This document shows, piece after piece, positions 2,173 to 22,385 of a stretch of 53,123 bases of DNA. The stretch lies in the IMG/VR virus record IMGVR_UViG_3300037067_027626, one strand, 5' to 3'. How positions within the stretch are numbered: position 1 is the first letter of the stretch; each line of letters begins with the position of its first letter. The notes beneath the pieces were generated by a model. That model worked only from the letters and a program-made list of their open reading frames with translations, ran no database searches and was not told the DNA's origin. A program made the position numbers and the translations under genes. This DNA comes from a virus (lineage: Duplodnaviria > Heunggongvirae > Uroviricota > Caudoviricetes).

Positions 2173-3882
2173 TTGTGCGGAATAATTGGGATTATATCAA
2201 ATAAACCTGTAATTAACGAATTACTCAATAGTCTTTCTGTTATGTCTTACAGAGGACACGATTCTTTTGGTGTGGCGTTAGTAGATGATAATAAATTGAT
2301 TATTAATAAAGACGTATGCGAGATACGGGATTTAAAAGTAGATAAAACACTAAAAAGCAAGATAGGTCTTGGTCACAACCGTTGGGCTTCGGTTGGGAAA
2401 GTAACAAAAGAAAACGCCCATCCTTTTACCGATTGTTGTGGACAATTAGCCATCGCCCACAATGGTAATATTGAAAACTATAAGCAACTCAAAGATACAT
2501 TAATTAAACGTGGTCATATATTTACATCTGAAACCGATTCAGAAGTTATCTCGCATTTAATTGAGCATTATTTAAAACGGCATGGCTTTAATAATGCGTT
2601 TAGTATAGCGATTCGATGCTTGAAAGGTTCTTATGCGGTTGTAGCAATTCATAGAGACTATCCTTATTTAATGGTTAGTAGAAAAGATAGCCCATTGATG
2701 ATAGGCAGAAATAATGATTCTGTATATGTAGCCAGTGATGAGCAGGCATTTAACGGAATAGAGAATAAGACGGAGATAAAGGACTACCAAGTAATGAGTA
2801 TTTCGCTTGACGGTCATACCGAAGAAGTACACGAAGAAGAAACTCAAAAAAGCGGTTATGCCCATTATATGCTGAAAGAAATATACGAACAGCCTGATAC
2901 TTTGCTTGAAACACTGAAACAGGATAGAAATAAACTAACCAGCGTGTCAATGGACATTTTAAGAGCCAAGGATGTCATTTTAACCGCTTGTGGAACTTCA
3001 CGTTTTGCTACTATTGTAGGTAGATATTTGCTGTTAAAAATAGGTAAACGAATGGGTGAAACGGTAGTCGGTTCGGAACTTCAATACTTAGATGCTTCAT
3101 TTGGTGAAAATACATTAATCATAGCAGTATCGCAAAGTGGTGAAACTGCCGATGTTTTATCGGGTGTGAGATTAGCCAAGCAAAAAGGAAGTCCGATTGT
3201 TTCTATCATTAATAAACCGCTTTCATTATTAGAGAGATTGAGTAACGTAACCATTCCGATGAATTGTGGAGCAGAAATAGCGGTGGCTTCAACTAAGGCT
3301 TTTACGAGTGAATTGGTGATATTTTATCTCTTAGCCTACACATTAGCGAATAAATATGATGAGGGTATGGTGGAACTTTGCTCGTTGCCGAGTGCTATAA
3401 GAGAATGTCTATTGCAAATAGATAAAGTTAAGAAAGTTGCAGAAATGTTGTATACCACAGAACATATTTACTATATAGGGAAAGGTATAAATTTCGCCAT
3501 AGCTGGCGAATGTGCGTTAAAGTTCAAAGAAGTTTCTTATATTCATGCTGAGTCAATGGCGGCGGGCGAACTAAAACATGGCACACTCTCATTAATTGAA
3601 GAAGGAACACCAGTTATAGGAATTTGCCCCAATGATTATACGTATCAGGAAACTATAGCAAATTTGTACGAAATAAAAGCACGAAAAGGATTCGTTATAG
3701 GAATATCGGATAAGAATAATGATGTTTTCGATTCTTGGATACCGATACCGAAAGTTAAGGCTTTATATTATCCTCTAGTCTGTGTGGTAATCGGACAACT
3801 TTTGGCTTACTATGCCGCTATATTAAAAGGCATAAATCCCGACCTCCCCCGTTCACTTTGCAAGGCGGTGACAGTTGTTTAG
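2173..3882 (+). CDS. glmS: Glutamine--fructose-6-phosphate aminotransferase (isomerizing)
   Basis: N-terminal MCGIIG nucleophile, GHNRWA, AHNGNIEN, SQSGETAD, ELKHG, C-terminal NPDLPRSLCKAVTV. Confidence 0.97.
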   Translation: MCGIIGIISNKPVINELLNSLSVMSYRGHDSFGVALVDDNKLIINKDVCEIRDLKVDKTLKSKIGLGHNRWASVGKVTKENAHPFTDCCGQLAIAHNGNIENYKQLKDTLIKRGHIFTSETDSEVISHLIEHYLKRHGFNNAFSIAIRCLKGSYAVVAIHRDYPYLMVSRKDSPLMIGRNNDSVYVASDEQAFNGIENKTEIKDYQVMSISLDGHTEEVHEEETQKSGYAHYMLKEIYEQPDTLLETLKQDRNKLTSVSMDILRAKDVILTACGTSRFATIVGRYLLLKIGKRMGETVVGSELQYLDASFGENTLIIAVSQSGETADVLSGVRLAKQKGSPIVSIINKPLSLLERLSNVTIPMNCGAEIAVASTKAFTSELVIFYLLAYTLANKYDEGMVELCSLPSAIRECLLQIDKVKKVAEMLYTTEHIYYIGKGINFAIAGECALKFKEVSYIHAESMAAGELKHGTLSLIEEGTPVIGICPNDYTYQETIANLYEIKARKGFVIGISDKNNDVFDSWIPIPKVKALYYPLVCVVIGQLLAYYAAILKGINPDLPRSLCKAVTVV

Positions 3883-4609
3883 GATAATATTGTTTGATTT
3901 AGATGGTACTTTAACCGAAAGTAGATTACCTATATCAAAGGAAACTGCGGATTTGGTTAAGGAGTTGCTAAAAGATAAATATGTTGGTGTGGTATCAGGT
4001 TGTTCAATAGACCAGATGAAATATCAACTCGGCAGTGTCTTATCGTCTGATAATTTGAATAACCTATGTTTGTTTCCTTCAACTGCTACGTGTCTTTATG
4101 TTTATGACGGAGGTTGGGTTTGTAAATATAGAGAGGTACTAAATGGAATATTAGCAGAACGGATTAAACAAACTTTACTGAAAGTCTGTAGAAATATTAA
4201 AGTGGAAGAACCTTATGGGGAAGTGATAGACGATAGAGGCGGACAGATAGCGATTGCATTAATGGGGATTAATGCCCCGTTAGATTACAAAGCGTTATAT
4301 GACCCTTATTATAGAAAAAGATTATCGGTGAAACCGATACTAGAACAAGAATTGCCTGAATGCGAAATAACTATTGGTGGCACTACTACGATTACGGTAA
4401 CAAGAAAAGGAATAGATAAAACTAACTGCATATACTTGGTTAAGAAATATTTTAATATTAACAAGGATGAAATATTGTTTATTGGCGATACGATATTTGA
4501 GAATGGTAATGATTACCCAATGAAAAAAGCTGGCGTGGACTGTATTCAAGTGGCTAATCCAGATGAAACCAAAAGAATTATAGGGAGATTGTTGTGCGGT
4601 ATAAATTAA
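3875..4609 (+). CDS. HAD-superfamily IIB phosphomannomutase-like phosphohexomutase/phosphatase
   Basis: Motif I FDLDGTLT; GGTTTITV..KGIDK; IGD..FENGNDYP typical of eukaryotic-type PMM. Confidence 0.85.
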   Translation: MFRIILFDLDGTLTESRLPISKETADLVKELLKDKYVGVVSGCSIDQMKYQLGSVLSSDNLNNLCLFPSTATCLYVYDGGWVCKYREVLNGILAERIKQTLLKVCRNIKVEEPYGEVIDDRGGQIAIALMGINAPLDYKALYDPYYRKRLSVKPILEQELPECEITIGGTTTITVTRKGIDKTNCIYLVKKYFNINKDEILFIGDTIFENGNDYPMKKAGVDCIQVANPDETKRIIGRLLCGIN

Positions 4610-5025
4610 AAGAATTAGAGGAATCAGATATTAACGAAAGTTTATTTGAAACGCTTGGCAACTTGAGAAGTTGTGGGGAATTAACAGTCGATAAAGCAAG
4701 ATTGTTGCTAAAGGGGATTAAAGTAAATCCATTACATAAAATATATGTTGCGTTAGATGGTAAAGATATTGTGGGTATAGCTACGATTATTATTGAGCAA
4801 AAATTCATCAGAAACGGTGGTAAGGTAGGGCATATTGAAGATGTGGCTACTAACAAGGATTATGAAAGAAAAGGAATAGCGTCAGCAATCATACAGAAAC
4901 TCATTAGTATAGCAAAAGAACAAGGTTGCTACAAAGTAATATTAGACTGTAGTGAAGAAAATAAACCATTTTATAAGAAAAACGGATTCAAAGAGTGTGA
5001 ATACGAAATGAGGCTGGATTTGTGA
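4594..5025 (+). CDS. Glucosamine-6-phosphate N-acetyltransferase (GNA1-type GNAT)
   Basis: IEQKFIRNGGKVGHIEDV, KGIASAII, GCYKVILDCSEENKPFYKKNGF match the GNA1 pattern; adjacent to glmS. Confidence 0.88.
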   Translation: MRYKLKELEESDINESLFETLGNLRSCGELTVDKARLLLKGIKVNPLHKIYVALDGKDIVGIATIIIEQKFIRNGGKVGHIEDVATNKDYERKGIASAIIQKLISIAKEQGCYKVILDCSEENKPFYKKNGFKECEYEMRLDL

Positions 5026-5450
5026 AAATTATAGCCTGTACGGTTGCGTTTAATTTTGTCCACTTAGGGCATTGGAAGCACATTGAAGAAGCCAATAAAC
5101 TCGGTGATAAACTTATTGTTATCGTAGCAAATGATGACTCGTTAAGAAAGCAAAAAGGCGGGCATAATTACCCTTTAATGGATAGGTTGGGTATATCTTA
5201 TCCGATAAAATGGCTTAATCCCTTGAATGAAGTTGTGGTTTCCATAGATACAGACGGTACAGTGGCAGAGACTTTAAAAATGATTCGCCCTCAAGTTTTT
5301 GCGAAAGGCGGAGACAGGGATTCGCATAATAGAATGCCTCAGAAAGAACTAGATGTCTGTAAAGAAATAGGGTGCGAAATAGTATACGGAGTTGGTAATG
5401 TATTAAATAGCAGTTCTCGGTTAAAAGAAGTTATATTAAAGAATTATTAA
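5022..5450 (+). CDS. Cytidylyltransferase-like (HIGH) nucleotidyltransferase
   Basis: FNFVHLGH (HxGH), LIVIVAND, FAKGGDR, final SSS motif. Confidence 0.85.
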   Translation: MKIIACTVAFNFVHLGHWKHIEEANKLGDKLIVIVANDDSLRKQKGGHNYPLMDRLGISYPIKWLNPLNEVVVSIDTDGTVAETLKMIRPQVFAKGGDRDSHNRMPQKELDVCKEIGCEIVYGVGNVLNSSSRLKEVILKNY

Positions 5451-5452: not shown

Positions 5453-6895
5453 TTGAAGAAAAATCTAGTTATATTAACGTGTTTCATTATATTTGCGGTT
5501 ATTATATTTGTACCGCCGATTGCTAAAGGTTATATCTATCCCAATATCGGGCATGATACCGCCGCCCACATGGAAATATTCGATAGAATTAAAATCGGTG
5601 AGCCTATCCCCCCAGTCAGGTATAATGCTTATTATATTGTCGGTTATCCCCTTGATTTAATAGCTAATATATTTCATACAAATAAAGATGTTCTCTTTTT
5701 CTGGTTTAATTATATTGTGTTGTTCGGTATAGGTTTATCTTTATTCTATATCCTGAAAAACCTCATTAATCTGGCTACGGGTCTTTTGACTTTACTTATA
5801 CCTATTTTTGCCTCATACAGTATATTACTACTCTTTTATAGTGGCGTTATCTTTAATTTAATTAATATATGTATCATATTACCCTTTGCTATCTATTTTA
5901 TGATTAAGTATATTCAGACAATTAAGGCTAAATATGCTGTTGGTTCGGTATTAATGTTTGCCTTATTCTCGATATTCCATATTACAGGTATCTATTTGTC
6001 TTTTATGGTAATTGGGGGATTGTTTCTATATGTATTGTATGTTTGGCGAACAAAACAACGCATTACCAAGAAATATCTGATAATCGGAAGTTTATTAGTA
6101 ATATTCAGTGTCGGGATGTTCATATTGAAGAATAGGATTTCTTTAGGGGTGGAATCCATTATGGTAGGGGGCAATTCAAATGCTAGTGGCTCAATAATGG
6201 TAGGAATCAATCCAAGTGCAAATGAGTCGATAAAAGGATTCCCGCTTATAGAGCAAACATTCATGTATTATCTTTCGCCTATGGTATTAGCGGTCATAAT
6301 CCTTTGCTTTATCAGAATATTCAATCTTTACAAAAAGATTAATAATATAGAAAAATTATTAATAATTATATTCTTATTATTATCTCTCACTATGTTGCCA
6401 GCAATGTTTGGTATATTTTCCCCCATTCCTTTAGTACAGGGATTGGATTTTGCTGTTTTCTTTTCCATACTGGCGACTATATTAGTCGGGATAATTCTGA
6501 GAATGGATAAGAATATAGTAATACCCGTAATATTAATAGTCTTAATCGGCTTTGGTTCTTTCCAGAATATCTATAAGGTAACAGTAGGTTATAATTCCGC
6601 ATTAACCAATCCAGATATAGAAGCGATTGAATACGTGAATAGTCTAACGGCGGATAGTTTTAGCGTTACCAAGAATATAGATATGAGTATTTATAAAAGA
6701 TATGTGAATAAACCTTTTAAAAGTTCAGATGCGGCAATATTAATAGATAGGAATGAACTTATGAGTTCAGGAGGAACATCGTATTTAAAACTTACTCCAC
6801 AAGACTCAGAATATTTCAAAGTAATAAAAACCTTCAGTGAAGGCGATGTTGTAGTGACTGTTTATGGAGATGAAAATATCGGAGTAATAAAATGA
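5453..6895 (+). CDS. Multi-pass membrane protein, probable GT-C-fold glycosyltransferase
   Basis: About 10-11 TM segments; acidic first external loop (GHDTAAHME); soluble C-terminal domain. Confidence 0.55.
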   Translation: MKKNLVILTCFIIFAVIIFVPPIAKGYIYPNIGHDTAAHMEIFDRIKIGEPIPPVRYNAYYIVGYPLDLIANIFHTNKDVLFFWFNYIVLFGIGLSLFYILKNLINLATGLLTLLIPIFASYSILLLFYSGVIFNLINICIILPFAIYFMIKYIQTIKAKYAVGSVLMFALFSIFHITGIYLSFMVIGGLFLYVLYVWRTKQRITKKYLIIGSLLVIFSVGMFILKNRISLGVESIMVGGNSNASGSIMVGINPSANESIKGFPLIEQTFMYYLSPMVLAVIILCFIRIFNLYKKINNIEKLLIIIFLLLSLTMLPAMFGIFSPIPLVQGLDFAVFFSILATILVGIILRMDKNIVIPVILIVLIGFGSFQNIYKVTVGYNSALTNPDIEAIEYVNSLTADSFSVTKNIDMSIYKRYVNKPFKSSDAAILIDRNELMSSGGTSYLKLTPQDSEYFKVIKTFSEGDVVVTVYGDENIGVIK

Positions 6896-8025
6896 AAATA
6901 CTTCAAGCCTTTGAGTATATGTCTTTACAGCATGGCGGTGGAACGGTTGATATTGTTTATAAACTCTCTAAATCGCTTCAACGAAAGGGACATGAAGTTA
7001 CTATAGCCACAAGTGATTATGAGGTTGATTGGAATTATCTGGAAGGTTTGAATGGCGTACATGTCAGGATGTATCGTAATTGGTTTAATTTATTAGGTAT
7101 GTGTATGCCATTGAATATAGTTAACTTAGATATTAAAAGATATGATGTTATCCATTTGCATACTTACCGTAGTTTTATCAATATAGTATTATCCAGTAAA
7201 GCACTTAAATATAAAATTCCTTATATACTGGACTCGCATGGCTCAAATGCGAAAATTTCTAAAACCTTGTTTAAATCATTTTATGATATAACATTCCGCA
7301 GATTATTACATGGGGCGAGTAAAGTGATTGCCGAAACAGAAAATGGAGTCGATGAATATAAATCTTTAGGTATAGAGGAAAGTAAAATAGAAGTATTGCG
7401 TTCTTTTATAGATATAAGCGAGTTTAATCAAGTTCCTTTGTATGGGTTATTCCGAGAAAAATATAAGTTAAGGTCAATACCTATCATATTGTTTGTTGGC
7501 AGGATAAATAAGATAAAAGGCTTAGATTTTCTTATGGAATCCTTTGCTCAATTATTAAAAACAAAAGAAGCAGTTTTGGTTATAGTTGGTCAGGATGATG
7601 GATATAAAGAGGAATTAGAAATTTTAAGACATAATCTAGGTCTTTGGGATGATGTGATTTACACAGGTTTTTTAAATGGAAATGAGAAAAAATCCGCAAT
7701 GGTAGATGCAAATATGTTAATCCAACCCTCAATAAGTGAAGCAGGTGCAAGACCTTCTATTGAGGCATTATTATGTGGAACTCCCGTTGTAGTTACCGCT
7801 TTTACGGGCGCTGGTAAAGAAATAGAAACAATGGATGGCGGTTATTTGGTGGGATATGGTGATATTAAAGGTTTAAGTAACATAATGCAACATATCATTG
7901 ATAATAAAGAATTTGCCCAAATAAAAACACATCACGCACAGAGATATATTAGAAATAATTTCTCATTGGAGAAACAGGTAGAAAGATACGAAAAAATATA
8001 TCAAAAATCTATTGACAGTCATTAA
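6892..8025 (+). CDS. Glycosyltransferase family 4
   Basis: HGGG N-terminal loop, LFVGRINKIKG, PSISEAGARPSIEALLCGTPVV (EX7E). Confidence 0.92.
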   Translation: MKILQAFEYMSLQHGGGTVDIVYKLSKSLQRKGHEVTIATSDYEVDWNYLEGLNGVHVRMYRNWFNLLGMCMPLNIVNLDIKRYDVIHLHTYRSFINIVLSSKALKYKIPYILDSHGSNAKISKTLFKSFYDITFRRLLHGASKVIAETENGVDEYKSLGIEESKIEVLRSFIDISEFNQVPLYGLFREKYKLRSIPIILFVGRINKIKGLDFLMESFAQLLKTKEAVLVIVGQDDGYKEELEILRHNLGLWDDVIYTGFLNGNEKKSAMVDANMLIQPSISEAGARPSIEALLCGTPVVVTAFTGAGKEIETMDGGYLVGYGDIKGLSNIMQHIIDNKEFAQIKTHHAQRYIRNNFSLEKQVERYEKIYQKSIDSH

Positions 8026-8040
8026 ATATCATGTTATATT
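8012..8040 (+). promoter_or_regulatory. sigma70-type promoter with extended -10
   Basis: TTGACA 8012-8017, 17 bp, TATATT 8035-8040 preceded by TG at 8032-8033. Confidence 0.7.
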
Positions 8041-8076: not shown

Positions 8077-8247
8077 ATGGTAGATTTAATAAATATAAAA
8101 GAATTGCGTAATAGTTTAGGATTAAGTCAGCAGCAATTTGCACAGAAACTAGGTGTTGGATTGATGACTGTTAGCCGTTGGGAAAGAGGAAAAAGTAAAC
8201 CATCGCACTTAGCACTTGAAAAGATTAAGAAGATAATACCTAAATAG
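8077..8247 (+). CDS. XRE/Cro-family HTH regulator (56 aa, absent from ORF track)
   Basis: Manual translation MVDLINIKELRNSLGLSQQQFAQKLGVGLMTVSRWERGKSKP... is a canonical HTH_3 pattern. Confidence 0.9.
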   Translation: MVDLINIKELRNSLGLSQQQFAQKLGVGLMTVSRWERGKSKPSHLALEKIKKIIPK

Positions 8248-8290: not shown

Positions 8291-10498
8291 ATGAAGAAAT
8301 TAAAGTATCTTAAAATCGCCTTGCCTATATTAATGCTTATGGGCATTTCCGTATTACTAAGGGTGGTTTTGCCCTATAATCAGATATTCTCCGAGTATGG
8401 TATTAAATACGCTTGTAATGATGCCTACTACCACATGAGAATCGTTGATAATCTTGTGGCGAATTTTCCTCATTTAACATACTACGACCCTTATTTTATA
8501 GTACCCAACGGAACATTTCTATTCGGTGAGCACTTCTTTGATTGGTTACTTGCGGGCATAGTATGGTTAGTCGGCTTAGGAAATCCTACTGCTCATACTA
8601 TTGATATAGTCGGCATTTACTTTCCTGTTATCTTAGCGGCATTGGTAATCATCCCGACTTATTTTGTAGGTAAAACACTATTCAATAAATATGCAGGATT
8701 AGTCGCCTCGGCTCTTGTGGCTATACTCCCTGGGGAATTTATGGGGCGTTCACTTTTAGGGGCTACTGACCATCATGTAGCAGAGACTTTATTCAGTACC
8801 GTAATGATTATGTTCTTTATCTTAGCGATTAAGGCGATAAGCAAAAAACGCCAGATTATATTTAGTGCATTATGCGGAATATTCTTAGGTATCTATCTCT
8901 TGACTTGGACTGGTGGTTTGCTCTTTATTCTGATTATGGCTCTTTATTATGTAGTACAAGCGATAGTAGACCATATTCAAAATAAAGCCTCATTCCAGTT
9001 AACTAGTTTAATAATATTCCCGATTGCCTTAATAATGAATTATTGGGGTTCTTTACCTAAGATATCTATAATTATCATGGTATTTGTAGAGATATTGCCT
9101 GTTTTATTATTCGGCTTGTCTAAATTAATGAGGAATTTTAAGGGCATATTTTATCCGCTAACCATAATCGGTTTTGGCTTACTTATATTCTTATTTGTAT
9201 ATTTTATAACCCCATCATTTATGGATAATTTTGCTGTGTTTATTTCATCAGGTGCTTCATCAGATACTACTTCGGAACTACAGCCATTCTTTTATCCTAG
9301 TGGTACTTTCACTGCTGATGTTGCATGGGGCAATTATACAATGAGCTTATTCTTAGCCCCGATTTCATTCCTTATTCTTATGTGGATGTATATCAAGAGA
9401 AAAGAGAAATCTATACTATTCTTTTTAACTTGGACTTTGGTTATAGCGGTTCTGACTCTTATACAACGCAGATATTCTTATTATTTAGTAGTAAATGTAT
9501 CGGTAATTATGGGGTATTTAATCTACGTTACCTATAAAGGTTTGGGGCGTTTATTTAAGTGGATATTCAAAATTCGCAAAGTTAATAATAAAAGATATAT
9601 TGGACTATCGGTTTATATCTTAGTGGTGTTTTTCGTTGTATTCTTCCCTAATTATAATCAGGATAAAGAAACATCAAGAGCACCTTTTACACCATCTAAT
9701 GCGTGGCAGAGTGCTCTTTTATGGATGAAAGATAATACTCCCAGCCCTTTTAATAATGAGGAAACCTATTACACTTATTATGGAGTGAATCCTTATGGTC
9801 TTAATCCATTACAAGAAGATATAGGCAAAGGTTATATCAAACCAAGCTATGCGGTTACATCTTGGTGGGATTACGGTTATTGGATTACAAGAATTGCACA
9901 CAGGATTCCAAATACTAATCCCGCACAACAAACAGAACCGATAAAGAAAGTAGCAGAGTTATTACTAGACGAAGAAAACAATATTGAGATAATAAATGAA
10001 TTTCAGACTAAGTATATAATAATAGATTATTCGCTTGTTACGGGGAAATTCTATGCTATGGCAGAATGGATAGATAAAAACTCCACAGATTATATGGATG
10101 TATTTTATGTGTATGATGAAGGTGTAATGAAACAGGTTGAACTATTCAGTATTGCATATTATAAAACTTTAGCGGTCAGGTTATTTAACTTTGACGGCAA
10201 AGCGGTGAGTAATGAACAACCTATGGTAGTTACTTATGTAGATAAAGTTACACCAGATGGGTATAAGTATAAACAGGTAACTAATTATAAAATGTTTAAA
10301 TCTTATGCAGAAGCTTTATCATACTCTCAAAGTATTAAAGGCTCATTAATAGTGGGGCTTAATCCCTTCGTAAGCCCGATACCGCTTGAAGCATTGGATG
10401 AATACAAGTTGGTTTATAGTTCAACTCAACAGAAACTTGCGTTAGAAGCTGGCGGAGTACCAGAAGTAAAGATATTTGAATATTTAGGAGCAAGTTAA
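8291..10498 (+). CDS. aglB: Oligosaccharyltransferase STT3/AglB family
   Basis: DAYYHMR, TDHHVAE, TTSELQP, QRRY and WWDYG motifs; about 13 TM segments plus soluble C-terminal domain. Confidence 0.95.
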   Translation: MKKLKYLKIALPILMLMGISVLLRVVLPYNQIFSEYGIKYACNDAYYHMRIVDNLVANFPHLTYYDPYFIVPNGTFLFGEHFFDWLLAGIVWLVGLGNPTAHTIDIVGIYFPVILAALVIIPTYFVGKTLFNKYAGLVASALVAILPGEFMGRSLLGATDHHVAETLFSTVMIMFFILAIKAISKKRQIIFSALCGIFLGIYLLTWTGGLLFILIMALYYVVQAIVDHIQNKASFQLTSLIIFPIALIMNYWGSLPKISIIIMVFVEILPVLLFGLSKLMRNFKGIFYPLTIIGFGLLIFLFVYFITPSFMDNFAVFISSGASSDTTSELQPFFYPSGTFTADVAWGNYTMSLFLAPISFLILMWMYIKRKEKSILFFLTWTLVIAVLTLIQRRYSYYLVVNVSVIMGYLIYVTYKGLGRLFKWIFKIRKVNNKRYIGLSVYILVVFFVVFFPNYNQDKETSRAPFTPSNAWQSALLWMKDNTPSPFNNEETYYTYYGVNPYGLNPLQEDIGKGYIKPSYAVTSWWDYGYWITRIAHRIPNTNPAQQTEPIKKVAELLLDEENNIEIINEFQTKYIIIDYSLVTGKFYAMAEWIDKNSTDYMDVFYVYDEGVMKQVELFSIAYYKTLAVRLFNFDGKAVSNEQPMVVTYVDKVTPDGYKYKQVTNYKMFKSYAEALSYSQSIKGSLIVGLNPFVSPIPLEALDEYKLVYSSTQQKLALEAGGVPEVKIFEYLGAS

Positions 10499-10504
10499 GG
10501 TGAT

Positions 10505-10735
10505 ATGTGGTTTCAAAATTTGGCAAGTTACAGCATATCCAATGTGCCACTTTATTTGGTCTGCATTTTGGGGTTCATTGGGTTATTCATTGACATTGAC
10601 CATGTTATTGCGTATAAACGCCCAAAACTTAATGGGCGATTCTTACATAAGTACGTGTGCTTTATTGGCGGGTGTCTCTTTTGCTATGTTGTCGCATGTT
10701 ATGGAATATGCTTGGTTGGAGTTATTTTAAGATGA
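10505..10735 (+). CDS. Small membrane protein with metal-hydrolase-like DxDH...RxxH motif
   Basis: FIDIDH and GRFLH; its TGA overlaps the next ATG (ATGA 10732-10735), favouring this frame over 10500..10730. Confidence 0.5.
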   Translation: MWFQNLASYSISNVPLYLVCILGFIGLFIDIDHVIAYKRPKLNGRFLHKYVCFIGGCLFCYVVACYGICLVGVILR

Positions 10736-11628
10736 TATTAGTCACTGGAGCATCGGGATTCGTAGGTTCGCATCTATGTAATAGATTAGTAAAAGAGGGT
10801 TATCAGGTTTTGGGTATAACTCATAATCGCATTAATCCTATGACAGAAACATTATTACAGAATAAGAATTTCAAGGTAGTCAATGGTGATATTATTGATG
10901 AGAAATTTGTGAGAAGTATATTCTTGAACAATGAAATAGATACGGTATTCCATCTTGCCGCCCATATACCAAATGCTTCGGGATTGGATTATATGGGAGT
11001 TAATGTTAAAGGAACATGTACCTTATTGACGGAATCTGATGAATACAATGTGAGTAATTTTATTTATGCCTCTAGTATGAGTGTTTATTCCGAACCAACA
11101 GTGTTCTTGCCTGTTACCGAAGAACATCCAGTAGGGAATACTAACTCTTATGGAGTTTCTAAACTGCAAGGGGAATCAGCCTGTAAAAGATTCTCAAATA
11201 ATATGATTATAACAATCTTGCGTTATGCAAGTGTTTATGGTAAAGGTTGCAGGCAACCGCTTGTCGTTGCTCGATTTGTGGATTTCGCACGTAATAATTT
11301 ACCTTTAACTATATATGGCGATGGTAGCCAGAGTAGTGATTTTGTATATATAGACGATGTAATCAATGGTAATTTACTCGCATGGAGAAAAGATAAGTCA
11401 GATTTATATAACATCGGTAGTGGACAAGAAATTACCATATTAGAATTAGCTCAGAATATTATTAAAATATTTAACTCAAAGTCGGAGATAGTATTTGCAG
11501 AAGTGGAATCAACTAGACCCTTTAGATTTTATTCTGACATAAGTAAAGCAAAAATAGAATTAGGGTATTCACCAATGGTTTTGGCAGAAGGATTGAAATT
11601 ATATGCAAAGGAATTGTTAGATGTATAG
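10732..11628 (+). CDS. NAD-dependent epimerase/dehydratase (extended SDR); last ~31 codons are the apparent replacement segment
   Basis: MILVTGASGFVG, YGVSK (YxxxK), IYGDGSQSSDFVYIDD; start at 10732 by ATGA coupling. Confidence 0.92.
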   Translation: MILVTGASGFVGSHLCNRLVKEGYQVLGITHNRINPMTETLLQNKNFKVVNGDIIDEKFVRSIFLNNEIDTVFHLAAHIPNASGLDYMGVNVKGTCTLLTESDEYNVSNFIYASSMSVYSEPTVFLPVTEEHPVGNTNSYGVSKLQGESACKRFSNNMIITILRYASVYGKGCRQPLVVARFVDFARNNLPLTIYGDGSQSSDFVYIDDVINGNLLAWRKDKSDLYNIGSGQEITILELAQNIIKIFNSKSEIVFAEVESTRPFRFYSDISKAKIELGYSPMVLAEGLKLYAKELLDV

Positions 11629-12787
11629 AACATTCAAATATAGAATTTATGCAAATAAAGAGATACTTGCAAAGACTGAAAATTGGCTAGAACTTTGTCG
11701 TAATCTTTATAACTGTGCGTTGGAACAAAGAATAGACGCATGGAAAAGACAAAGAATTACCTTATTTGAATATGCGCAATCCGCAGAATTACCACTTATT
11801 AAACAGACTAATCTTGAATATAAATACGTTAATGCACAAACATTGCAAGAAGTATTAGAGCGTTTAGAATTAGCCTACAAAAAGTTCTTCAAACGTAGAG
11901 TGAATCATGAAGGCAAAGGTGGATTCCCTAGATTTAAAGGTAAGAATAGATATGATTCTTTTACGCTTAAAAATACTGGTTGGAAGTTAGATGGTAAATA
12001 TATTTCTATACGTCATCTAGGTAAGTTCAAGTTAAAATTATCTCGTGAGATTCAAGGTGATATAAAGACTATAACAATTTGTAAATCTAAAACTAACCAT
12101 TGGTACGCTTGCTTTTCATGTGACAATATATCTGAAAAAAGACTTACGCAATCCGATAAAATAATTGGAATTGATGTAGGAATAAGGTCTTTTCTAACTG
12201 ATTCAGAAGGTGATAAAGTTGAAAATCCAAAATTTCTTAAACATACTTTGAGGGAATTAAGGGTAAGACAGCGTGCATTGGTAAGGAATAAGCGTAATTC
12301 TAATAGACGTAAAGAAACTAAATTACAACTTTCAAAATGCTATGAAAAAATAACCAATCAGCGTAAAGATTTTCATTATAAACTAGCAAATCAATATGTG
12401 GAGAATTATGGAGTTATATCAATAGAAAATCTTAATATTAGTGGATTAGTTAAGAACCATAAACTTGCAAGGGATATAAAAGATTGTGCGTGGGGGAATT
12501 TTATAGAGATACTTAAATTCAAAGCGGAAGAAGCTGGAAGGCAAGTTATTGAAGTAAACCCACATAATACAAGTAAGATGTGTTCTAATTGTGGGAAAAT
12601 CAACACATTTTTAAAACTATCTGATAGAGAGTGGGCTTGTTTAGAGTGTGGCACAATCCATGATAGAGATGAAAACGCAGCTATAAATATAAAGAGGCTT
12701 GGGCAGAGCCGTCAGACGCTAACGTGTCAGAATACTGAGAGCGTAGTCTGAGAATCTCTTTTGAATTTATTTGGAAGGGAGTGTCAA
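11533..12787 (+). mobile_element. Solo tnpB cassette 1 (IS200/IS605, IS1341-like) whose left part encodes the host gene C-terminus
   Basis: TTTAT at 11528-11532 before the junction; right end with subterminal hairpin 12755-12780 ending GTGTCAA (TCAA 12784-12787); no tnpA; flanked by two copies of S-D-I-S-K-A coding sequence. Confidence 0.75.
11621..12751 (+). CDS. tnpB: RNA-guided endonuclease TnpB (IS605 OrfB type)
   Basis: FKYRIY N-terminus; RuvC residues GIDVG, IENL, DRDENAAINI; Zn finger CSNCG/CLECG. Confidence 0.96.
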   Translation: MYRTFKYRIYANKEILAKTENWLELCRNLYNCALEQRIDAWKRQRITLFEYAQSAELPLIKQTNLEYKYVNAQTLQEVLERLELAYKKFFKRRVNHEGKGGFPRFKGKNRYDSFTLKNTGWKLDGKYISIRHLGKFKLKLSREIQGDIKTITICKSKTNHWYACFSCDNISEKRLTQSDKIIGIDVGIRSFLTDSEGDKVENPKFLKHTLRELRVRQRALVRNKRNSNRRKETKLQLSKCYEKITNQRKDFHYKLANQYVENYGVISIENLNISGLVKNHKLARDIKDCAWGNFIEILKFKAEEAGRQVIEVNPHNTSKMCSNCGKINTFLKLSDREWACLECGTIHDRDENAAINIKRLGQSRQTLTCQNTESVV

Positions 12788-12856: not shown

Positions 12857-14083
12857 ATGATTAAAAACCCTATTATTTGTGTTGTGGGTATGGGATATGT
12901 GGGATACCCTGAAGCAGTAGCTTTTGCTAAACATTTTTCGGTAAATGGTTACGATATAGATGCTGATAAAGTTTGTAAATTGAATATTAGTAATAAAGAG
13001 AAACGATTAGTAATTACTCAGTATCCCGATTTTTGCATACCAAAAGCCGATTTTATAATCATTGCCGTGCCTACTCCAATAAATGAAGATAAAACACCTG
13101 ATTTATCCCCTGTAGAATCCGTTTCTAAAACTGTAGGTAAATATATGAAGAAGGGTTGCACAGTAATCCTTGAATCGACAGTTTACCCTGGAGTTTCTGA
13201 AGAAATAATGTTGCCCATATTAGAAAAGGAATCGGGTTATAAGGTGGGTAAGGATTTTAAAATCGCCTTTTCACCTGAAAGAATAAATCCTGGGGATGAT
13301 TTACACTCTATAGATAAGGTAACAAAAGTAGTTGGCGGAATGGATAAAGAAACTACTGATTTAGTGGCGGAACTTTACGACCATATCACTCTAAATACTT
13401 TCAAAGCCACAAGCATAAAAGTAGCAGAAGCCTCAAAAGTCATTGAGAATGTGCAGAGAGATTTGAATATAGCCTTAATGAACGAGTTGTCTTTTATCTT
13501 TAAGAGAATGAATATAAGTATCAGGGATGTAATCGAAGCCTCAGCAACTAAATGGAACTTCTACAAAATATTTCCTGGTATGATAGGCGGTCATTGTATC
13601 CCTGTAGACCCTTATTATCTAACTTACAAGTCAGAACAACTAGGCTTTAATCCTAAATTAATATATACTGCTCGGATGATAAATAATGGGATGCCTTATT
13701 ATGTGGCGAAATTAGCCAAGGAAAACATAAAGAAGCAAGCGAATATTCTTATTGCGGGTTTAACATATAAAGAAAATGTACCTGATATTAGAGAATCACC
13801 GTCTAAACATTTAATTGAGGCATTAAAAGAATATAATTTATTTACCTTTGACCCACTATTAGAGAAAATTGAGAAAAGTTTCGATATAAAGTCGGTTAGA
13901 AGATTATCGGAACTCAAAGATATAGATTGCATAATATTCGCAGTAGTCCATGATGTATTTAAAGAGATAGGATTAGAAGAATTTAAGGCTATAACAAGAG
14001 ATAATCCTTTATTGATAGATGTTCGATGCGGATTTAATAGAGAAGAAGCAGAAAAACTCGGTTTCAAATATATAACACTATGA
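12857..14083 (+). CDS. UDP-N-acetylhexosamine/nucleotide-sugar dehydrogenase (WbpO/WecC/VipA family)
   Basis: GMGYVG, AVPTP, ESTVYPG, FSPERINPGD, GGHCIPVDPYYL, GLTYKENVPDIRES. Confidence 0.94.
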   Translation: MIKNPIICVVGMGYVGYPEAVAFAKHFSVNGYDIDADKVCKLNISNKEKRLVITQYPDFCIPKADFIIIAVPTPINEDKTPDLSPVESVSKTVGKYMKKGCTVILESTVYPGVSEEIMLPILEKESGYKVGKDFKIAFSPERINPGDDLHSIDKVTKVVGGMDKETTDLVAELYDHITLNTFKATSIKVAEASKVIENVQRDLNIALMNELSFIFKRMNISIRDVIEASATKWNFYKIFPGMIGGHCIPVDPYYLTYKSEQLGFNPKLIYTARMINNGMPYYVAKLAKENIKKQANILIAGLTYKENVPDIRESPSKHLIEALKEYNLFTFDPLLEKIEKSFDIKSVRRLSELKDIDCIIFAVVHDVFKEIGLEEFKAITRDNPLLIDVRCGFNREEAEKLGFKYITL

Positions 14084-15042
14084 TAAAGAATAAACGGATA
14101 CTTATAACAGGTGGTGGTGGTTTTATAGGGGTAGCATTAGCCAAACAACTAATTCCCTATAATAATGTTGCTCTACTTGATAAAGATTTTGTGGATAATG
14201 CGTTTGCTTATTCATGCTTTAAGGATGATAAAAGGATAGAAACCATACTTGTAGATATACTTGATAAAGATAAATTAAAAGAGGTCGTACAAAATTACGA
14301 TATTATTATTCATGCCGCAGGATTTCTTGGAGTACAGAAAGTAATAGAGAATGTAGCACAAACCCTTGAGGTGAATTATTCAGGAACTCGTAATATCTTA
14401 GAATCTATAGATAAATGCGAGAAGATATTAATATTCTCAACAAGCGAAGTCTATGGCTCTAATGCGATAAATGTGTTGGAAGATAATAGTTCCAGTATTC
14501 CTTCAATAGAAAATCCAAGGTGGTCTTACAATATAAGCAAATTAGCCGCAGAATATATTACCTTAGACTATTACAGAAAAGGATTACCCGTAGTTATAGT
14601 ACGACCTTTCAATATATTTGGTGGTGGCAGAGTTGGGGATTATGCAATTTTACGCTTTATATACAGAGCCTTAAAGAATGAGGATTTAGAGGTCTATGGT
14701 AATGGTAATCAAATTCGGGCGTGGTGTTATATTGATGATTTCTGCGATGCGATATTCAAGATATTAGAAAACGATTTAGAAAACGATAAGGTATTGGGCG
14801 AATCTTTTAATATCGGAAATCCCTTAAATACTATAACAATGTATAGATTAGCCAAACTCATAATAAAAATGTGCAACTCAAAGTCTAAAATAGTGTTTAA
14901 GGGTATAGATTTCGCAGATGTTAATATCCGTATGCCTGATATTACAAAAGCAAAAGAGATACTGGGGTATTCTCCCAAGATAGAACTAGAAGAAGGATTA
15001 GAAAAAACTATCAAGTGGGCAAAAGATGTCTACAAATTATAA
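14080..15042 (+). CDS. NAD-dependent epimerase/dehydratase or decarboxylase (extended SDR)
   Basis: ITGGGGFIG, STSEVYG, RWSYNISK, RPFNIFG, QIRAWCYIDD. Confidence 0.9.
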   Translation: MIKNKRILITGGGGFIGVALAKQLIPYNNVALLDKDFVDNAFAYSCFKDDKRIETILVDILDKDKLKEVVQNYDIIIHAAGFLGVQKVIENVAQTLEVNYSGTRNILESIDKCEKILIFSTSEVYGSNAINVLEDNSSSIPSIENPRWSYNISKLAAEYITLDYYRKGLPVVIVRPFNIFGGGRVGDYAILRFIYRALKNEDLEVYGNGNQIRAWCYIDDFCDAIFKILENDLENDKVLGESFNIGNPLNTITMYRLAKLIIKMCNSKSKIVFKGIDFADVNIRMPDITKAKEILGYSPKIELEEGLEKTIKWAKDVYKL

Positions 15043-15775
15043 CGAATTAGCCCTTAAAATAAGACAACACGTAGTTAGAATGACGCATGACGCAAAAAGC
15101 TCTCATGTGGGTTCATGTTTGTCGTGTGCGGATATTTTAGCAGTATTGTATGGTGGAGTATTACAAAAAGAAGATAAGTTTATTATGAGTAAAGGTCATG
15201 CAAGTGCCGCTTTATATGCTACTCTCGCAGAATGTGGCTATTTTCCTTTAAGTGATTTAGAAGGATTTTATAATGGTAAATTAAGTGGTCATGTTTCACA
15301 TTTTATAAAAGGTGTCGAGGCTTCAACAGGTTCTTTAGGTCATGGGTTATCAATAGGATGCGGAATGGCGTTAACCACAAAAAATAAAGTCTATGTTCTA
15401 TTGAGTGATGGTGATTTAAATGAAGGCTCAACATGGGAAGCAGTCATGTTTGCCTCACAACATAAATTAAGTAATCTTACTGTTATCGTTGATTATAATG
15501 GGTTTCAATGTACTGGCAGAACGCAAGATATTATTAACTTAAAACCATTATCAGAGAAATGGCGAGCCTTCGGATGGTTTGTATTGAATATAGATGGGCA
15601 TAGTTATCGGGATTTAGAAAATGCTTTTGAGAAATTTGAAATAGATTCACCGATTTGTATAATAACTAATACCATAAAAGGTAAAGGTGTAATAATACTA
15701 GAAAATACAGTTGAGTCTCATCATAGATATTTGAATAATGAGGAACTAAAACAAGCATTGGGAGAATTAAGATGA
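15026..15775 (+). CDS. Transketolase-like protein, N-terminal (ThDP-binding) subunit
   Basis: SHVGSCLS, SKGHA, STGSLGHG, SDGDLNEGSTWEA, TIKGKG. Confidence 0.93.
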   Translation: MSTNYNELALKIRQHVVRMTHDAKSSHVGSCLSCADILAVLYGGVLQKEDKFIMSKGHASAALYATLAECGYFPLSDLEGFYNGKLSGHVSHFIKGVEASTGSLGHGLSIGCGMALTTKNKVYVLLSDGDLNEGSTWEAVMFASQHKLSNLTVIVDYNGFQCTGRTQDIINLKPLSEKWRAFGWFVLNIDGHSYRDLENAFEKFEIDSPICIITNTIKGKGVIILENTVESHHRYLNNEELKQALGELR

Positions 15776-15945
15776 AACCCAAAGATAAATATTTCGAACG
15801 TATGGCAGCATTTTGTATTCACGGTATAGGATTTTGCGTATTTAATAACTGTGTAATATTTGAAAAGTGTTATCCTGAACTTTATAAAGAATGGCAAATA
15901 TCTAAAGAGAATGAGAAATGCGGAAAACCTTTATTAAAACCTTAA
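15772..15945 (+). CDS. Small Cys-rich hypothetical protein between the transketolase halves (57 aa, absent from track)
   Basis: ATGA overlap with the upstream stop; MKPKDKYFERMAAFCIHGIGFCVFNNCVIFEKCYPELYKEWQ... Confidence 0.4.
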   Translation: MKPKDKYFERMAAFCIHGIGFCVFNNCVIFEKCYPELYKEWQISKENEKCGKPLLKP

Positions 15946-16832
15946 CTGAATTAGCGGAAAAAGATTCTAATATCTATTTGCTCACAGCCGATATGGGATT
16001 TGGTATGGTAGAACCTTTCTCAGAGAAATATCCCGATAAGTTTATTAATGTCGGTGTAGCAGAACAGAATATGATAGGCATTGCTACTGGCTTAGCCTTA
16101 TCAGGTAAAATTGTATTCTGCTACTCTATTGCGAATTTCCCCACATTAAGATGTCTCGAACAGATTAGAAATGATATATGTTATCACAATGTAAGAGTTC
16201 ATATAGTAGCAGGCGGAGTAGGATTAAATTATGGGGCTTTAGGAAGTTCGCATCATACTACAGAGGATGTATCAATAATGAGAAGTTTGCCCAATATGAC
16301 CGTAATCTGTCCTAGTGATATACGCGAAGCGGAAGGTGCGGTAAGAGCCATGTATAAATCCGAATCTCCATGTTATATGAGATTGGGATATTATGACGGT
16401 AAAACTACATATGATAATCGTGAATTTAAAATAGGTAAGGCAAGCACAATAGTTAGTGGGCTTGACGCAACGATTATCACAACAGGTAGTATGCTGAATG
16501 TGGCTTTAGAAGCAGTAGATAAACTAAATAGATGTAATATTTATCCCACATTAATAAATATGCACACGATTAAACCCATAGATAGTGAAGCAATAATAAA
16601 TGAGTCTAAGATTTCTAATATCATATTAACCATTGAAGAACATAATCTTATAGGCGGTTTGGGTAGTGCGGTTGCCGAAGTTATAGCAGATAACTCTTTA
16701 AAAGTTAAATTTATAAGAATGGGAATTCCTGATGTCTTTTGTACACAAGTAATGAATAGAGACAATTTATTGAAATGTTACGGTTTAACATCAGATGAAG
16801 TAGTAAAGAGGATTAAAGATGCCATTCGCTAA
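15918..16832 (+). CDS. Transketolase-like protein, C-terminal subunit
   Basis: LTADMG, NVGVAEQNMIG, HHTTED, YMRLG, EEHNLIGGLGS. Confidence 0.93.
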   Translation: MRKTFIKTLTELAEKDSNIYLLTADMGFGMVEPFSEKYPDKFINVGVAEQNMIGIATGLALSGKIVFCYSIANFPTLRCLEQIRNDICYHNVRVHIVAGGVGLNYGALGSSHHTTEDVSIMRSLPNMTVICPSDIREAEGAVRAMYKSESPCYMRLGYYDGKTTYDNREFKIGKASTIVSGLDATIITTGSMLNVALEAVDKLNRCNIYPTLINMHTIKPIDSEAIINESKISNIILTIEEHNLIGGLGSAVAEVIADNSLKVKFIRMGIPDVFCTQVMNRDNLLKCYGLTSDEVVKRIKDAIR

Positions 16833-17637
16833 GACGCAGAAATTATTGCGAGAAATTTTGCCTCAAAAAACATTTGATAATTTATATAATAATGCTTGTA
16901 ATCTCTATGATGTTTACCAGAGAACTAAGGAACGAGTTTCCTCAGTTCCTTATTATCTTTACTTTATCTTATCAATCCAGAAAAATGAAGTAATAAGAAT
17001 AGAAATTGTGCAAAAAGTATTAAATCATACAATGGTTTCTAAGAAAGGTGTAGAACTTACTTATAATATTGCTTATAAAGCCTTAGAGTTAGATGGATGT
17101 TTTGTGGAATGTGGTGTGGCAAGAGGCGGAACTTCCGCAGTAATGGCGATGATAGCAAAAAATGAAGGCAAAAACCGTAAAATGTGGATGTTTGATTCTT
17201 ATGAGGGTTTGCCTCTTCAATCAGATAAAGACGGTATTCAAAAACCCATAAGACATCAGAATAGAACTGCAAGTGATTTAGCACAAGGATATTGCTTGGG
17301 GACATTTCAAGAAGTAGACCATTGGCTATTTCATCACTTGGAATTATCGAGAAGAAATGTATTTATGATTAAAGGATGGTTTAAAGATACTTTACCTCAA
17401 TGTAAGAATAAAGTAGGTGATATTGTAGTTTTAAGATTAGACGGTGATTGGTATGAAAGCACAAAAACTTGCTTAGAAAATCTTTATGATAACGTGGTAA
17501 AAGGCGGATTTATTATCATAGACGATTATCATTTACAGGGCTGTAAATTAGCAGTAGATGAATATATAGAAAAATTAAAAGAAAAACCTAAGATGATTAA
17601 TGATATAAGAGATGGCAGATGCTATTTAGTAAAATGA
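16819..17637 (+). CDS. TylF/MycF-family sugar O-methyltransferase
   Basis: FVECGVARGG, FDSYEGLP, KGWFKDTLP, LRLDGDWYEST, IIDDY. Confidence 0.92.
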   Translation: MPFAKTQKLLREILPQKTFDNLYNNACNLYDVYQRTKERVSSVPYYLYFILSIQKNEVIRIEIVQKVLNHTMVSKKGVELTYNIAYKALELDGCFVECGVARGGTSAVMAMIAKNEGKNRKMWMFDSYEGLPLQSDKDGIQKPIRHQNRTASDLAQGYCLGTFQEVDHWLFHHLELSRRNVFMIKGWFKDTLPQCKNKVGDIVVLRLDGDWYESTKTCLENLYDNVVKGGFIIIDDYHLQGCKLAVDEYIEKLKEKPKMINDIRDGRCYLVK

Positions 17638-18806
17638 AGAAATATGATTTAATAGTGTTCCTTTCAATTTATGCAATAGCTTTTGCTATTGTACTTTATT
17701 ATGGGATTTCGCATAATCCCGTAAATGATGGAGTATGGGAATATTACACTTACCTAGATAATATTACAGAGGGTTGGAAATTTAGATTGAGTAGTGTAAA
17801 TTCCTGTGTTATTACTACTTGGCTTCCTGCGATGGTACAAAGAATAACAGGGTTAGACCAGATGTTTGTTTTTAGGTTAATACCCGCTTTATTTTATCCG
17901 TTGATGCCATCATTCACTTATTTAATTGCAAGGCGTTATGTGAATATCAAGTGTGCGGTACTTTCCTCATTAGTAGTATTATGCTCTGCTTATTTTATTT
18001 ATTTTCCAGATATAGGGCGTGTCGGAGTAGGGATAGCTTTTATGGCTGGAATGATTTGGGCTTTACTTGAAAAGAAAATTGTATGGGCTTTAATCTTTGC
18101 GGTCTTAACTGTGTTTGCTCATTATGCTACAGGATTTATCGCTATAGGAATTGTTGGCTCGGCATGGATTATAAATTTAATTTGGAAACGACAATTATTA
18201 AAACAGTATTCAGTAATATTTTGCGTTTTATTATTGCTTACGGGAGTTTGGCATATTGGTATTGCTAGATATTCAGGCGATGCAATGTTAAGTACCTTAT
18301 TTCAAAAAACTGGAATGGCATATATCCCTAGCGATGATGGTAATTTGTTATCATCTTTAGTTGACTCATCTACCAGAGAGCCAGCAGTTCAAGATGCGTT
18401 ATTAATGAACTTTAAAGAAATGCCCGTTCCTAAGTTAATAGAAATTGCCTCAAATTATTTAATGATAATTATGGTATCTTTAGGATTAATCCTTACGATA
18501 AGAAGAAAAGATATAGATAGACAGTTTAAAATCATGGCTTTATCTTTCTATGGTCTAATAATATTTACCGTGGCTATCCCTTGGCTCTCAGTCTATTATG
18601 GCGGAATGAGGGTTTATTTCACTTCTACGATGTTATTGGCAACTTGCTTCCCAATCGGTTTAGAAAAAATCGCTAAGACAATTCGTATTCCTATGTTATT
18701 ACTAGGAGTGGTGATACTAATTATGTATGCGTTATCAACTTCGGGGATTATTTATTTACCTTTTGGTTTAGAAAAAAACTTTCCTGCGTTTACGATATTA
18801 AAATGA
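17634..18806 (+). CDS. Multi-pass membrane protein, GT-C-like or polymerase-like
   Basis: About 10 TM segments; acidic first loop NDGVWEYY; start moved to ATG 17634 (ATGA overlap). Confidence 0.5.
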   Translation: MKKYDLIVFLSIYAIAFAIVLYYGISHNPVNDGVWEYYTYLDNITEGWKFRLSSVNSCVITTWLPAMVQRITGLDQMFVFRLIPALFYPLMPSFTYLIARRYVNIKCAVLSSLVVLCSAYFIYFPDIGRVGVGIAFMAGMIWALLEKKIVWALIFAVLTVFAHYATGFIAIGIVGSAWIINLIWKRQLLKQYSVIFCVLLLLTGVWHIGIARYSGDAMLSTLFQKTGMAYIPSDDGNLLSSLVDSSTREPAVQDALLMNFKEMPVPKLIEIASNYLMIIMVSLGLILTIRRKDIDRQFKIMALSFYGLIIFTVAIPWLSVYYGGMRVYFTSTMLLATCFPIGLEKIAKTIRIPMLLLGVVILIMYALSTSGIIYLPFGLEKNFPAFTILK

Positions 18807-19161
18807 AAAATATAAAAATGCCGATAGTGGATATAGGTTTGGTTTGGGGGAAGATTGCTAATATATGGGGGCAAGTAGGTATTATAGCCAGCGTAGTTAG
18901 TTTCATAATGACAATAGGAATATTTTATACTACAACAGCCTATCCTAATTGGGGATTACCATTGTGGGCATATTTACTCATTATTATAATAGGGGCAATC
19001 TTTGTTATCGGGTTTATTGTAAAATGGGGAATTTCAGGATATTATAGGTTCTTTTCTAACCAGAGTGCCATAACATCTTTACATAGTAGGATTGATGAGT
19101 TAGAGGGAAAATTAGACCTTATAATGAAACACTTAAATATTCAAAAGGAAGAAAAGAAATA

Positions 19162-19162
<1 letters not shown>
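18803..19162 (+). CDS. 2-TM membrane protein with C-terminal coiled coil
   Basis: Two hydrophobic segments, then LHSRIDELEGKLDLI. Confidence 0.6.
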
Positions 19163-21623
<2,461 letters not shown>

Positions 21624-21627
<4 letters not shown>

Positions 21628-22385
21628 TAAAGGAAATTTATAGGTTCGTGAATCGATTCACTAATGAGTTTATAAATCCCTTACATATAATATATGGTGT
21701 TCTATCCTATGCGAGATATATGAATGACCTATATAAATATCGCAAAATGGAAGGTGCTGAACCAATTAGTATATCTAATATTCACCCCTGTTTATTTGAA
21801 AGAACTGCCACTACGAGTTTTGACGCACATTATTTTTATCAGGATGTTTGGGCGTTCAATAAAATATACGAAAGTAAAGTTAAATCCCATGTTGATGTCG
21901 GGTCAAGAACAATTTATGTTGGTATTCTTTCGACAATTACAAAGGTCACATTTATAGACATTAGACCATTAGAAGCAAAGTTAGAAAACTTGGAATGTAA
22001 AAAGGGCGATATTTTGAATATGCCTTATGAAGATAATTCCGTGCAATCGTTATCCTGTCTGAATATTGCTGAGCATATTGGGCTTGGTAGATACGGAGAG
22101 CCTTTAGACCCATTGGGAACAATAAAAGCAACTAAAGAATTATCGAGGATATTAGCGGTAAATGGGAATCTTTATTTTTCAGTGCCTATAGGGAAGCCAA
22201 AGGTATACTTTAATGCACATCGCAATCATTCTCCGCAACAAATCATAGATTATTTTAGAGGACTTGAATTAAAGGAATTGTCGGCGGTTACAGATGATAA
22301 GGTATTTAAGAAGAACATACCTATTAATATATTAGAAAAATCGAATTATGCTTGTGGATTATTTCATTTTAGGAAAACGAAATGA
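21624..22385 (+). CDS. DUF268-like methyltransferase-fold protein
   Basis: HVDVGSR, IDIRPL, SLSCLNIAEHIGLGRYGEPLDPLG. Confidence 0.8.

Follow-up and report, generated by a model that had tools for sequence, protein, structure and literature searches.

The 53,123-nt stretch of DNA analysed here (the window; IMG/VR record IMGVR_UViG_3300037067_027626) carries an intact gene for a single-subunit oligosaccharyltransferase of the archaeal AglB type, set in an island of sugar genes on a virus-like element. In the explanation which we regard as the best, and as moderately probable, a working AglB is owned by a large tailless dsDNA virus of some 125 kb, of which 79.5 kb could be read, and its particles are put together at the membrane of their host, a bacterium of the Dehalococcoidia. 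To our knowledge, viruses are held to borrow the oligosaccharyltransferase of their host, and we know of no STT3-family enzyme in giant viruses. In a literature search of incomplete coverage, neither an oligosaccharyltransferase encoded by a virus nor a published study of Dehalococcoidia AglB came up; the enzyme is a known one, in a place not reported in the searchable literature.

The aglB gene is a single open frame (8291-10498, + strand; ATG at 8291, stop at 10498) coding for 735 aa without internal stop. The four motifs on which the preliminary description of this DNA had based its call of an intact AglB/STT3 are all in place: DAYYH at aa 44 (nt 8420), DHH at aa 160 (nt 8768), TTSE at aa 326 (nt 9266) and WWDYG at aa 525 (nt 9863). 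The product has STT3 and AglB_core-like matches in Pfam, and scores 519.9 bits against the AglB subfamily TIGR04154 (NCBIfam), which is above the curated cut-off of 450. Residues 9-597 were aligned by phmmer to AglB-L from Archaeoglobus fulgidus (3waj, E=1e-56). Counted along this alignment, D44, R153 and D160/H161/H162 correspond to D47, R154 and D161/H162/H163 of AfAglB-L, while E329, R394, W525-W526-D527 and K586 correspond to E360, R426, the WWD motif and K618. The metal-binding acidic residues (EL1 Asp, DxH and TIxE Glu) and the Arg, namely D44, D160/H162, E329 and R394, are conserved in 140 homologues; as for the Ser/Thr pocket motifs, WWDYG (W525-G529) is invariant in the same set and the DK-type K586 is aligned to K618. 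The AlphaFold model (pLDDT 81.7) consists of a GT-C membrane domain and a soluble C-terminal domain, and its top Foldseek match is 7e9s (E=7e-29, TM 0.74), with AglB structures ranked first, followed by STT3 and then PglB. The element enzyme thus shares with A. fulgidus AglB-L (PDB 3WAJ, 3WAK, 5GMY, 7E9S) the fold, the TIGR04154 cut-off, the catalytic Asp/His/Glu/Arg, WWDYG and the DK-type Lys. It differs in being shorter (735 versus 875 aa), in having TTSE instead of TIAE and in lacking a His at the position of H81 (F78 is aligned there, with a His three residues further), the identity being about 22% by structure alignment and the setting virus-like. By every sequence and fold test the predicted product belongs to the AglB family, and the archaeal type named earlier is borne out by the subfamily cut-off and the catalytic residues; the gene looks intact, and catalytic activity is predicted. 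The aglB-bearing DNA recurs in two assembled contigs, one from Logan (100%) and one from ENA (99.9%), and a landfill run from another study contains 94% of its words. A T>A variant was observed at window position 49376 in the contig of run X1.

The gene had also been described as lying in an element with bacterial expression signals, and the placement of the best promoter-like sites agrees with this. A putative promoter of the sigma-70 type, identified by its match to the consensus (TTGACA-17-TATATT with an extended -10 TG; 8012-8040, +), stands 65 nt before a gene for a 56-aa Cro/HTH_3 regulator (8077-8247, +; Pfam), which in turn precedes aglB. Three of the seven exact-TTGACA sites fall 35-65 nt 5' of a gene start, against a background of 6.9% (binomial p ~0.01, calculated by hand), and one of these three heads the aglB operon. 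Since promoter-like sites in total are not more frequent than in shuffled sequence (77 versus 96.9), the evidence lies in the position of the best sites and not in their number. The Shine-Dalgarno rate is 65% versus 10%, a figure which is inflated by start picking and does not tell bacteria and archaea apart.

Around aglB, a glycan gene island of about 34% GC extends over 37 kb (2.2 to 39 kb), in which about 30 genes for sugar synthesis, modification and transfer are found on one strand (+ for all features given here). The island is joined to an upstream ATPase-capsid block by the 3' end of a conserved virus module (349-1639; a 286-aa membrane protein and ORFs of 70 and 67 aa). It starts with genes for amino-sugar supply (2173-5450; GlmS, a HAD/PMM-like protein, a GNAT acetyltransferase and a cytidylyltransferase-like protein), followed by a 480-aa polytopic membrane protein (5453-6895; about 10 TM segments, no family match), which is common to related elements and a candidate GT-C glycosyltransferase, and by a GT4 glycosyltransferase (6892-8025), which belongs to the aglB cassette as its conserved upstream gene. 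A 76-aa hydrophobic ORF (10500-10730), kept in the related loci L004-L007, lies directly 3' of aglB, and further downstream are an NAD-dependent epimerase/dehydratase (10732-11628; a cassette member), a UDP-sugar dehydrogenase with an epimerase (12857-15042), a split transketolase-like pair of N and C genes (15026-16832), which suggests branched-chain sugar synthesis, a TylF-type O-methyltransferase (16819-17637; a cassette member), and a 395-aa 8-TM protein (weak DUF2206) with a 119-aa 2-TM protein (17619-19162), both kept in the cassette. A block of variable sugar genes (19162-33426) contains GDP-mannose dehydratase and reductase, methyltransferases, a GT, a formyltransferase, a dehydratase, a DegT aminotransferase, a GT2, a PseB/FnlA-like dehydratase, a reductase and a UDP-GlcNAc 2-epimerase. 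The last part of the island codes for a GT2 with two TM segments (33416-34270), whose best NCBIfam match is AglJ (TIGR04182, 135.5 bits, below the cut-off of 325) and which is a candidate primer of the lipid-phosphate carrier, for a GT4 and a B12-binding radical SAM protein (34225-36799), and for a TMEM260-like membrane protein (37246-38964; weak Pfam match, E=5.5e-5), possibly a second protein glycosyltransferase. No flippase was identified within the window.

Two TnpB/IS605 OrfB genes without a transposase lie inside the island (window 11621-12751 and 30021-31280), and TnpB genes also occur in or beside the islands of the relatives L005 and L145. A reductase (29360-30031) and a cupin-like ORF (31569-31931) are found between the FnlA-like and 2-epimerase genes, with TnpB between them, and their order makes them look like the CapF/FnlB function split in two genes. 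Human TMEM260 O-mannosylates IPT domains, and since the TMEM260-like gene occurs on the same element as a TIG/IPT-domain protein (L088 6088-9273), the element may have a second system, of the O-linked type. Relatives with no visible aglB (L093, L102, L127, L129) have TMEM260-like genes as well.

The best genome matches of the element AglB are Dehalococcoidia MAGs (about 40% identity), its nearest cellular relatives, in line with the statement in the preliminary description that this type of enzyme also occurs in the class; closer matches (44-53%) are unbinned. A first tree of 140 sequences placed the element AglB in a clade without genome-binned members, none being found among the 80 best genome matches. 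In an IQ-TREE analysis of 48 sequences (LG+G4), which includes several element sequences of atypical composition and takes clade membership from the first tree, the 13 sampled clade members form a single clade (99/99), nested in a group of Dehalococcoidales (100/100). An archaeal placement, in which the clade is joined to haloarchaea, was rejected (p-AU 0.0026), the outgroup being limited to two haloarchaea of the subfamily, with no Methanomicrobia or Archaeoglobi. The phylogeny of cellular and element AglBs, which had been proposed as a check, thus sets the element clade apart from binned genomes and within Dehalococcoidales, and indicates that the direct source of the element aglB was Dehalococcoidia rather than archaea.

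The surroundings of five other clade members (L004, L005, L144, L145 and L146) were compared, and all five share a cassette composed of GT4, epimerase, aglB, split transketolase, TylF methyltransferase and a membrane protein of about 390 aa; the sugar genes downstream vary between relatives. Because this gene set surrounds all five, the cassette has been kept across diverged elements and is not a chance pickup. Pieces of the virus module are also found at L005 and L144, and at L146 there is a series of small phage-like genes that includes YopX; the sequence of L004 does not reach far enough for its setting to be judged, and that of L145 is less clear. The chromosomal AglBs of Dehalococcoidia MAGs represent the direct source clade, and several of the neighbouring sugar genes, including cassette genes, have homologues adjoining the chromosomal aglB. 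The element copies, in contrast, form their own clade, are mostly on lower-GC contigs and are found in the fixed GT4-epimerase-aglB-transketolase-TylF-membrane-protein order. Two further features were seen among the homologues: an FtsH-like AAA protease (Peptidase_M41; L145 303-2126) lies immediately 5' of one aglB cassette, and a DnaJ domain (PF00226) is inserted in several Dehalococcoidia-type AglBs (P0013, P0027, P0047, P0055, P0058 and P0059).

The window was extended 26.4 kb leftward through overlapping Logan contig loci, giving a stitched sequence of 79,546 bp with no terminal overlap. The longest contig is 124,964 bp for aglB, ATPase and pilin alike, and the size of the element is probably about 125 kb. 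The part upstream of the island codes for small basic proteins and for an exported, membrane-anchored protein of 1261 aa, as well as for a helical hairpin of 71 aa and a protein of 2813 aa. Two small conserved proteins, secreted proteins and an ATPase of the P-loop type are also encoded there. Its GC content is about 31-40% (2-kb bins), compared with 41-69% at Dehalococcoidia aglB loci. No housekeeping genes were found among the products scanned in the 79.5 kb of the ~125-kb contig, and no tRNA in the scanned sequence. These absences, together with the lack of genome-binned clade members among the 80 best genome matches and the position of the island between the virus module and ORFan blocks, argue against the contig being a normal glycosylation locus on the chromosome of some unknown low-GC cell. 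That alternative is barely credible, although Dehalococcoidia chromosomes too have aglB beside sugar genes and the sequence read covers 79.5 kb of the contig. The gene can thus be taken as encoded by the element and not nested among the chromosomal genes of a cell, as first proposed.

The ATPase of the virus module (L088:5265-6086) is of the Zot/pI-like extrusion type, with a Walker A motif, an Atlas score of 0.96 and Atlas neighbours carrying PF05707. The 1261-aa protein is an adhesin candidate (weak fn3 match, 3 TM segments, C-terminal membrane anchors), and occupies the same position, adjoining the putative capsid genes, in the relatives L003 and L092. The order of the module recurs in many metagenome contigs from sediment, landfill and groundwater, as well as in L003, a complete IMG/VR virus with terminal repeats. 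In L092, a 68-aa hairpin which resembles VP1 of spindle-shaped viruses is a capsid candidate. At the left end of L090 (1-1025), some 25.4-26.4 kb to the left of the window, four group I introns are found by Rfam. Joined together, the exons that they separate give a peptide similar to the L092 protein in its C-terminal half, with a score of 67 against a maximum of 44 in shuffled controls. This end of L090 reads as a capsid-like gene which four or more group I introns cut into exons just 10-35 bases long; an HNH gene is next to it on the other strand. A profile of the hairpin family gave only two matches among 177,635 PDB sequences, VP1 of SSV19 being the second (E=4.4, non-significant), and one family member matches phrog_11172 VP1 (E=0.094, also non-significant). 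The protein is modelled as a hairpin, and of the weak matches to 7xdi VP1, phrog_11172 and 7ro2 none is significant alone; a fold search ranked the SMV1 capsid 14th (Z 5.2) amid unrelated helical pairs, and Foldseek gave no match for the 71-aa hairpin. The link to known capsids is weak but consistent. No tailed-phage or PHROG hallmark genes were found among the genes scanned in the 79.5 kb (small ORFs being scanned in part), no conjugation or partition gene was seen in the scanned part, and there was no AglB match in 50,697 GenBank phage records. The battery of small basic proteins, the group I introns, the HNH genes and the dense ORFans are virus-like traits, and the gene content makes a tailless, membrane-assembling virus likely.

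Other features of the element include about 14 very small Lys/Arg-rich proteins in a row before the structural genes (L090 2405-5644), a 34-bp direct repeat (97%; window 41691-41724 and 41932-41965) ahead of two small membrane-protein genes, and an exported 217-aa protein (window 45546-46199) whose C-terminal part is cohesin-like by eye, without family match. Around window 46200-46400 genes converge and the GC skew changes sign (strand switch near 46.3 kb), as at a replication terminus, and a 240-aa protein with a weak match to phosphoribosylanthranilate isomerase (PRAI) is encoded at window 52401-53123 (- strand).

The IME1 viruses of Dehalococcoides and Dehalogenimonas are dsDNA viruses of 21-28 kb with a pI-like ATPase and small hydrophobic proteins similar to VP1 of SSV1; they integrate by a tyrosine recombinase, and those of Dehalococcoides dominate DNase-treated viral fractions (bioRxiv 10.64898/2026.09.15.751708). 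The element, as judged from its genes, resembles them in the pI-like ATPase, the putatively VP1-like hairpins, the absence of tailed-phage hallmarks among the genes scanned, the probable link to Chloroflexota and a GC content below that of the probable host. It is however at least 79.5 kb and 4-6 times larger, and thus outside a strict IME1 size criterion; a tyrosine recombinase, a primase-helicase and tRNA integration were not seen in its readable 79.5 kb, and the glycan island has no counterpart among the genes mentioned in the IME1 paper (bioRxiv 10.64898/2026.09.15.751708), which does not mention a glycosylation gene. The spindle-shaped viruses of archaea (Fuselloviridae SSV1/SSV19, Wyrdviridae, Thaspiviridae) are also similar in having two hairpin capsid-like paralogues, an adhesin and a pI-like ATPase without TM segment, and wyrdviruses have been described with the same combination of ATPase, hairpin and adhesin. 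Glycosylated capsids are typical of these viruses (PMC10866085, PMC10541130), but their hosts are archaea, their genomes are much smaller and they use host machinery or single glycosyltransferases, and no oligosaccharyltransferase is reported in the spindle-shaped virus literature examined. The best reading of the element's sequence is that of a budding virus which resembles the Dehalococcoides IME1 viruses but is larger. The weak statistics of the capsid assignment, the absence of PHROG hallmarks among the genes tested and the lack of a close relative in IMG/VR would also fit a large Dehalococcoidia plasmid or episome forming no particle, in which the ATPase-membrane module would be a surface filament or secretion device glycosylated by AglB. 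We give this a low probability: the gene order is that of a complete virus with terminal repeats and of the wyrdvirus and IME1 modules, the small basic proteins, introns, HNH genes and ORFans look viral, and conjugation and partition genes were not seen in the scanned part.

As for the host, the AglJ-like GT2 has 47% identity to a Dehalococcoidia protein and 39-41% at best to those of Thermoproteota, and 47-50% identity to proteins beside Dehalococcoidia aglB loci. The element also codes for a LuxR-type HTH protein and for an N-methyl-type type IV pilin (43151-43531, +), whose best full-length genome match found is in a Dehalococcoidia genome (48%), other phyla not being compared. This pilin is alone, with no assembly genes nearby, carries one sequon and could enter the pili of the host. 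Since the aglB tree, the AglJ-like GT2 and the pilin agree, the host is likely a Dehalococcoidia bacterium. Neither the ATPase profile (401 Dehalococcoidia genomes) nor the hairpin profile (251) gave a match, in searches run with no positive control, so that absence is not implied. A DNA search of 401 genomes gave no CRISPR link, the matches being two to the pilin gene and one of 36 bp without repeat array, and no integrated copy or provirus linking the element to a host was found. Given that spindle-shaped viruses are described as archaea-specific, the host could instead be an archaeon, with the Dehalococcoidia-like genes acquired sideways. The probability of this is very low, as aglB nests in Dehalococcoidales, the sigma-70 promoter-like sites before small regulators, the LuxR-type HTH and the N-methyl-type pilin point to a bacterium, and IME1 has this module in Dehalococcoides. 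Only 18 of 201 sampled Dehalococcoidia genomes (incomplete MAGs) reach the TIGR04154 cut-off, so a virus of such a bacterium might gain from its own AglB.

In general, any N-x-S/T sequon that is accessible can be a target of AglB enzymes. Owning the enzyme would therefore set the glycan and free the element from that of its host, but would not by itself pick targets; of the earlier proposal that the element chooses both glycan and substrates, the second half is not supported as worded. The 428-aa membrane-anchored coiled-coil protein put forward there as the sequon source (ORF 43871; 43871-45157, +) does not stand out, with 6 sequons against 8.0 expected by shuffling, and 12 exported candidates together have 59 against 59.0 expected. 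The adhesin (19) and the TIG-domain protein (17) are not above chance either, and the excess in a 193-aa secreted protein (5 versus 2.2 expected, p ~0.04) is lost after multiple testing. In the capsid candidates of relatives, sequons are found in the hairpin turn (NTT at 25 in L092; NAT and NNT in L003), as is likewise reported for capsids of spindle-shaped viruses (PMC10866085, PMC10541130). This, and the start of the island directly 3' of the structural module on the same strand, favour the virion over the host surface as the main target. With the same virus and host, the kit could instead serve mainly to put new glycans on the surface of the host (on pili and S-layer-type proteins) against superinfection or rival viruses, the virion being secondary. 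Chronic, non-lytic viruses such as IME1 coexist with their host (bioRxiv 10.64898/2026.09.15.751708), the element has a lone pilin with a sequon, its proteins lack sequon enrichment, and about 30 sugar genes, the downstream ones differing among relatives, are much for a small capsid; we nevertheless consider this alternative unlikely.

According to our preferred explanation, an ancestor of the virus group would have acquired aglB from Dehalococcoidales, probably along with sugar genes next to it, and kept it in a conserved cassette. The island enzymes would produce unusual nucleotide sugars, probably including a branched sugar, an O-methylated one and an N-formylated one. By analogy with euryarchaeal pathways, the AglJ-like GT2 would prime the polyprenyl phosphate of the host, and the glycan would be extended by GT4/GT2 enzymes, decorated by methyl- and formyltransferases and then flipped. 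On the outer face of the membrane, AglB would attach it en bloc to N-x-S/T sequons of exported proteins. A virus that sends its coat and adhesins across the host membrane is of the kind able to use AglB, and its capsid and adhesin proteins would be the main targets, with some host surface proteins unavoidably modified too. The virion would thereby be glycosylated without need of the host enzyme, whose occurrence in the class is patchy.

An AglB-like gene is also present in L003 (IMGVR_UViG_3300025655_000107), the complete 38,167-bp virus with a spindle-type module. Its 597-aa gene (8822-10615) is directly before the capsid block, has 38-40% identity to Thermoproteota (its nearest searched relatives) and is far from the element clade; its sequence marks it as an independent capture, unrelated to the element copy. 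Giant viruses (chloroviruses, mimiviruses) similarly have their own nucleotide-sugar pathways and glycosyltransferases (PMC5408694), but infect eukaryotic hosts. Taken more broadly, the data may describe a virus family of about 100 kb with archaeal spindle-type capsids that infects Dehalococcoidia and owns a near-complete N-glycosylation pathway including the oligosaccharyltransferase, an enzyme captured independently at least twice by tailless membrane-assembling viruses (here from Dehalococcoidia, in L003 from archaea); this we put forward tentatively, at slightly less than even chances.

If this is true, a virus equipped with AglB and with the pathway for its sugars would decide which N-glycan it carries, and could also change the surface of its host. 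Being compact, mesophilic and single-subunit, and coming from a bacterial setting, the element AglB is a further candidate for use in glycoengineering. The finding bears on whether Dehalococcoidia, which are important in bioremediation, have archaeal-style N-glycosylation, and on whether spindle-type capsids exist outside archaea.
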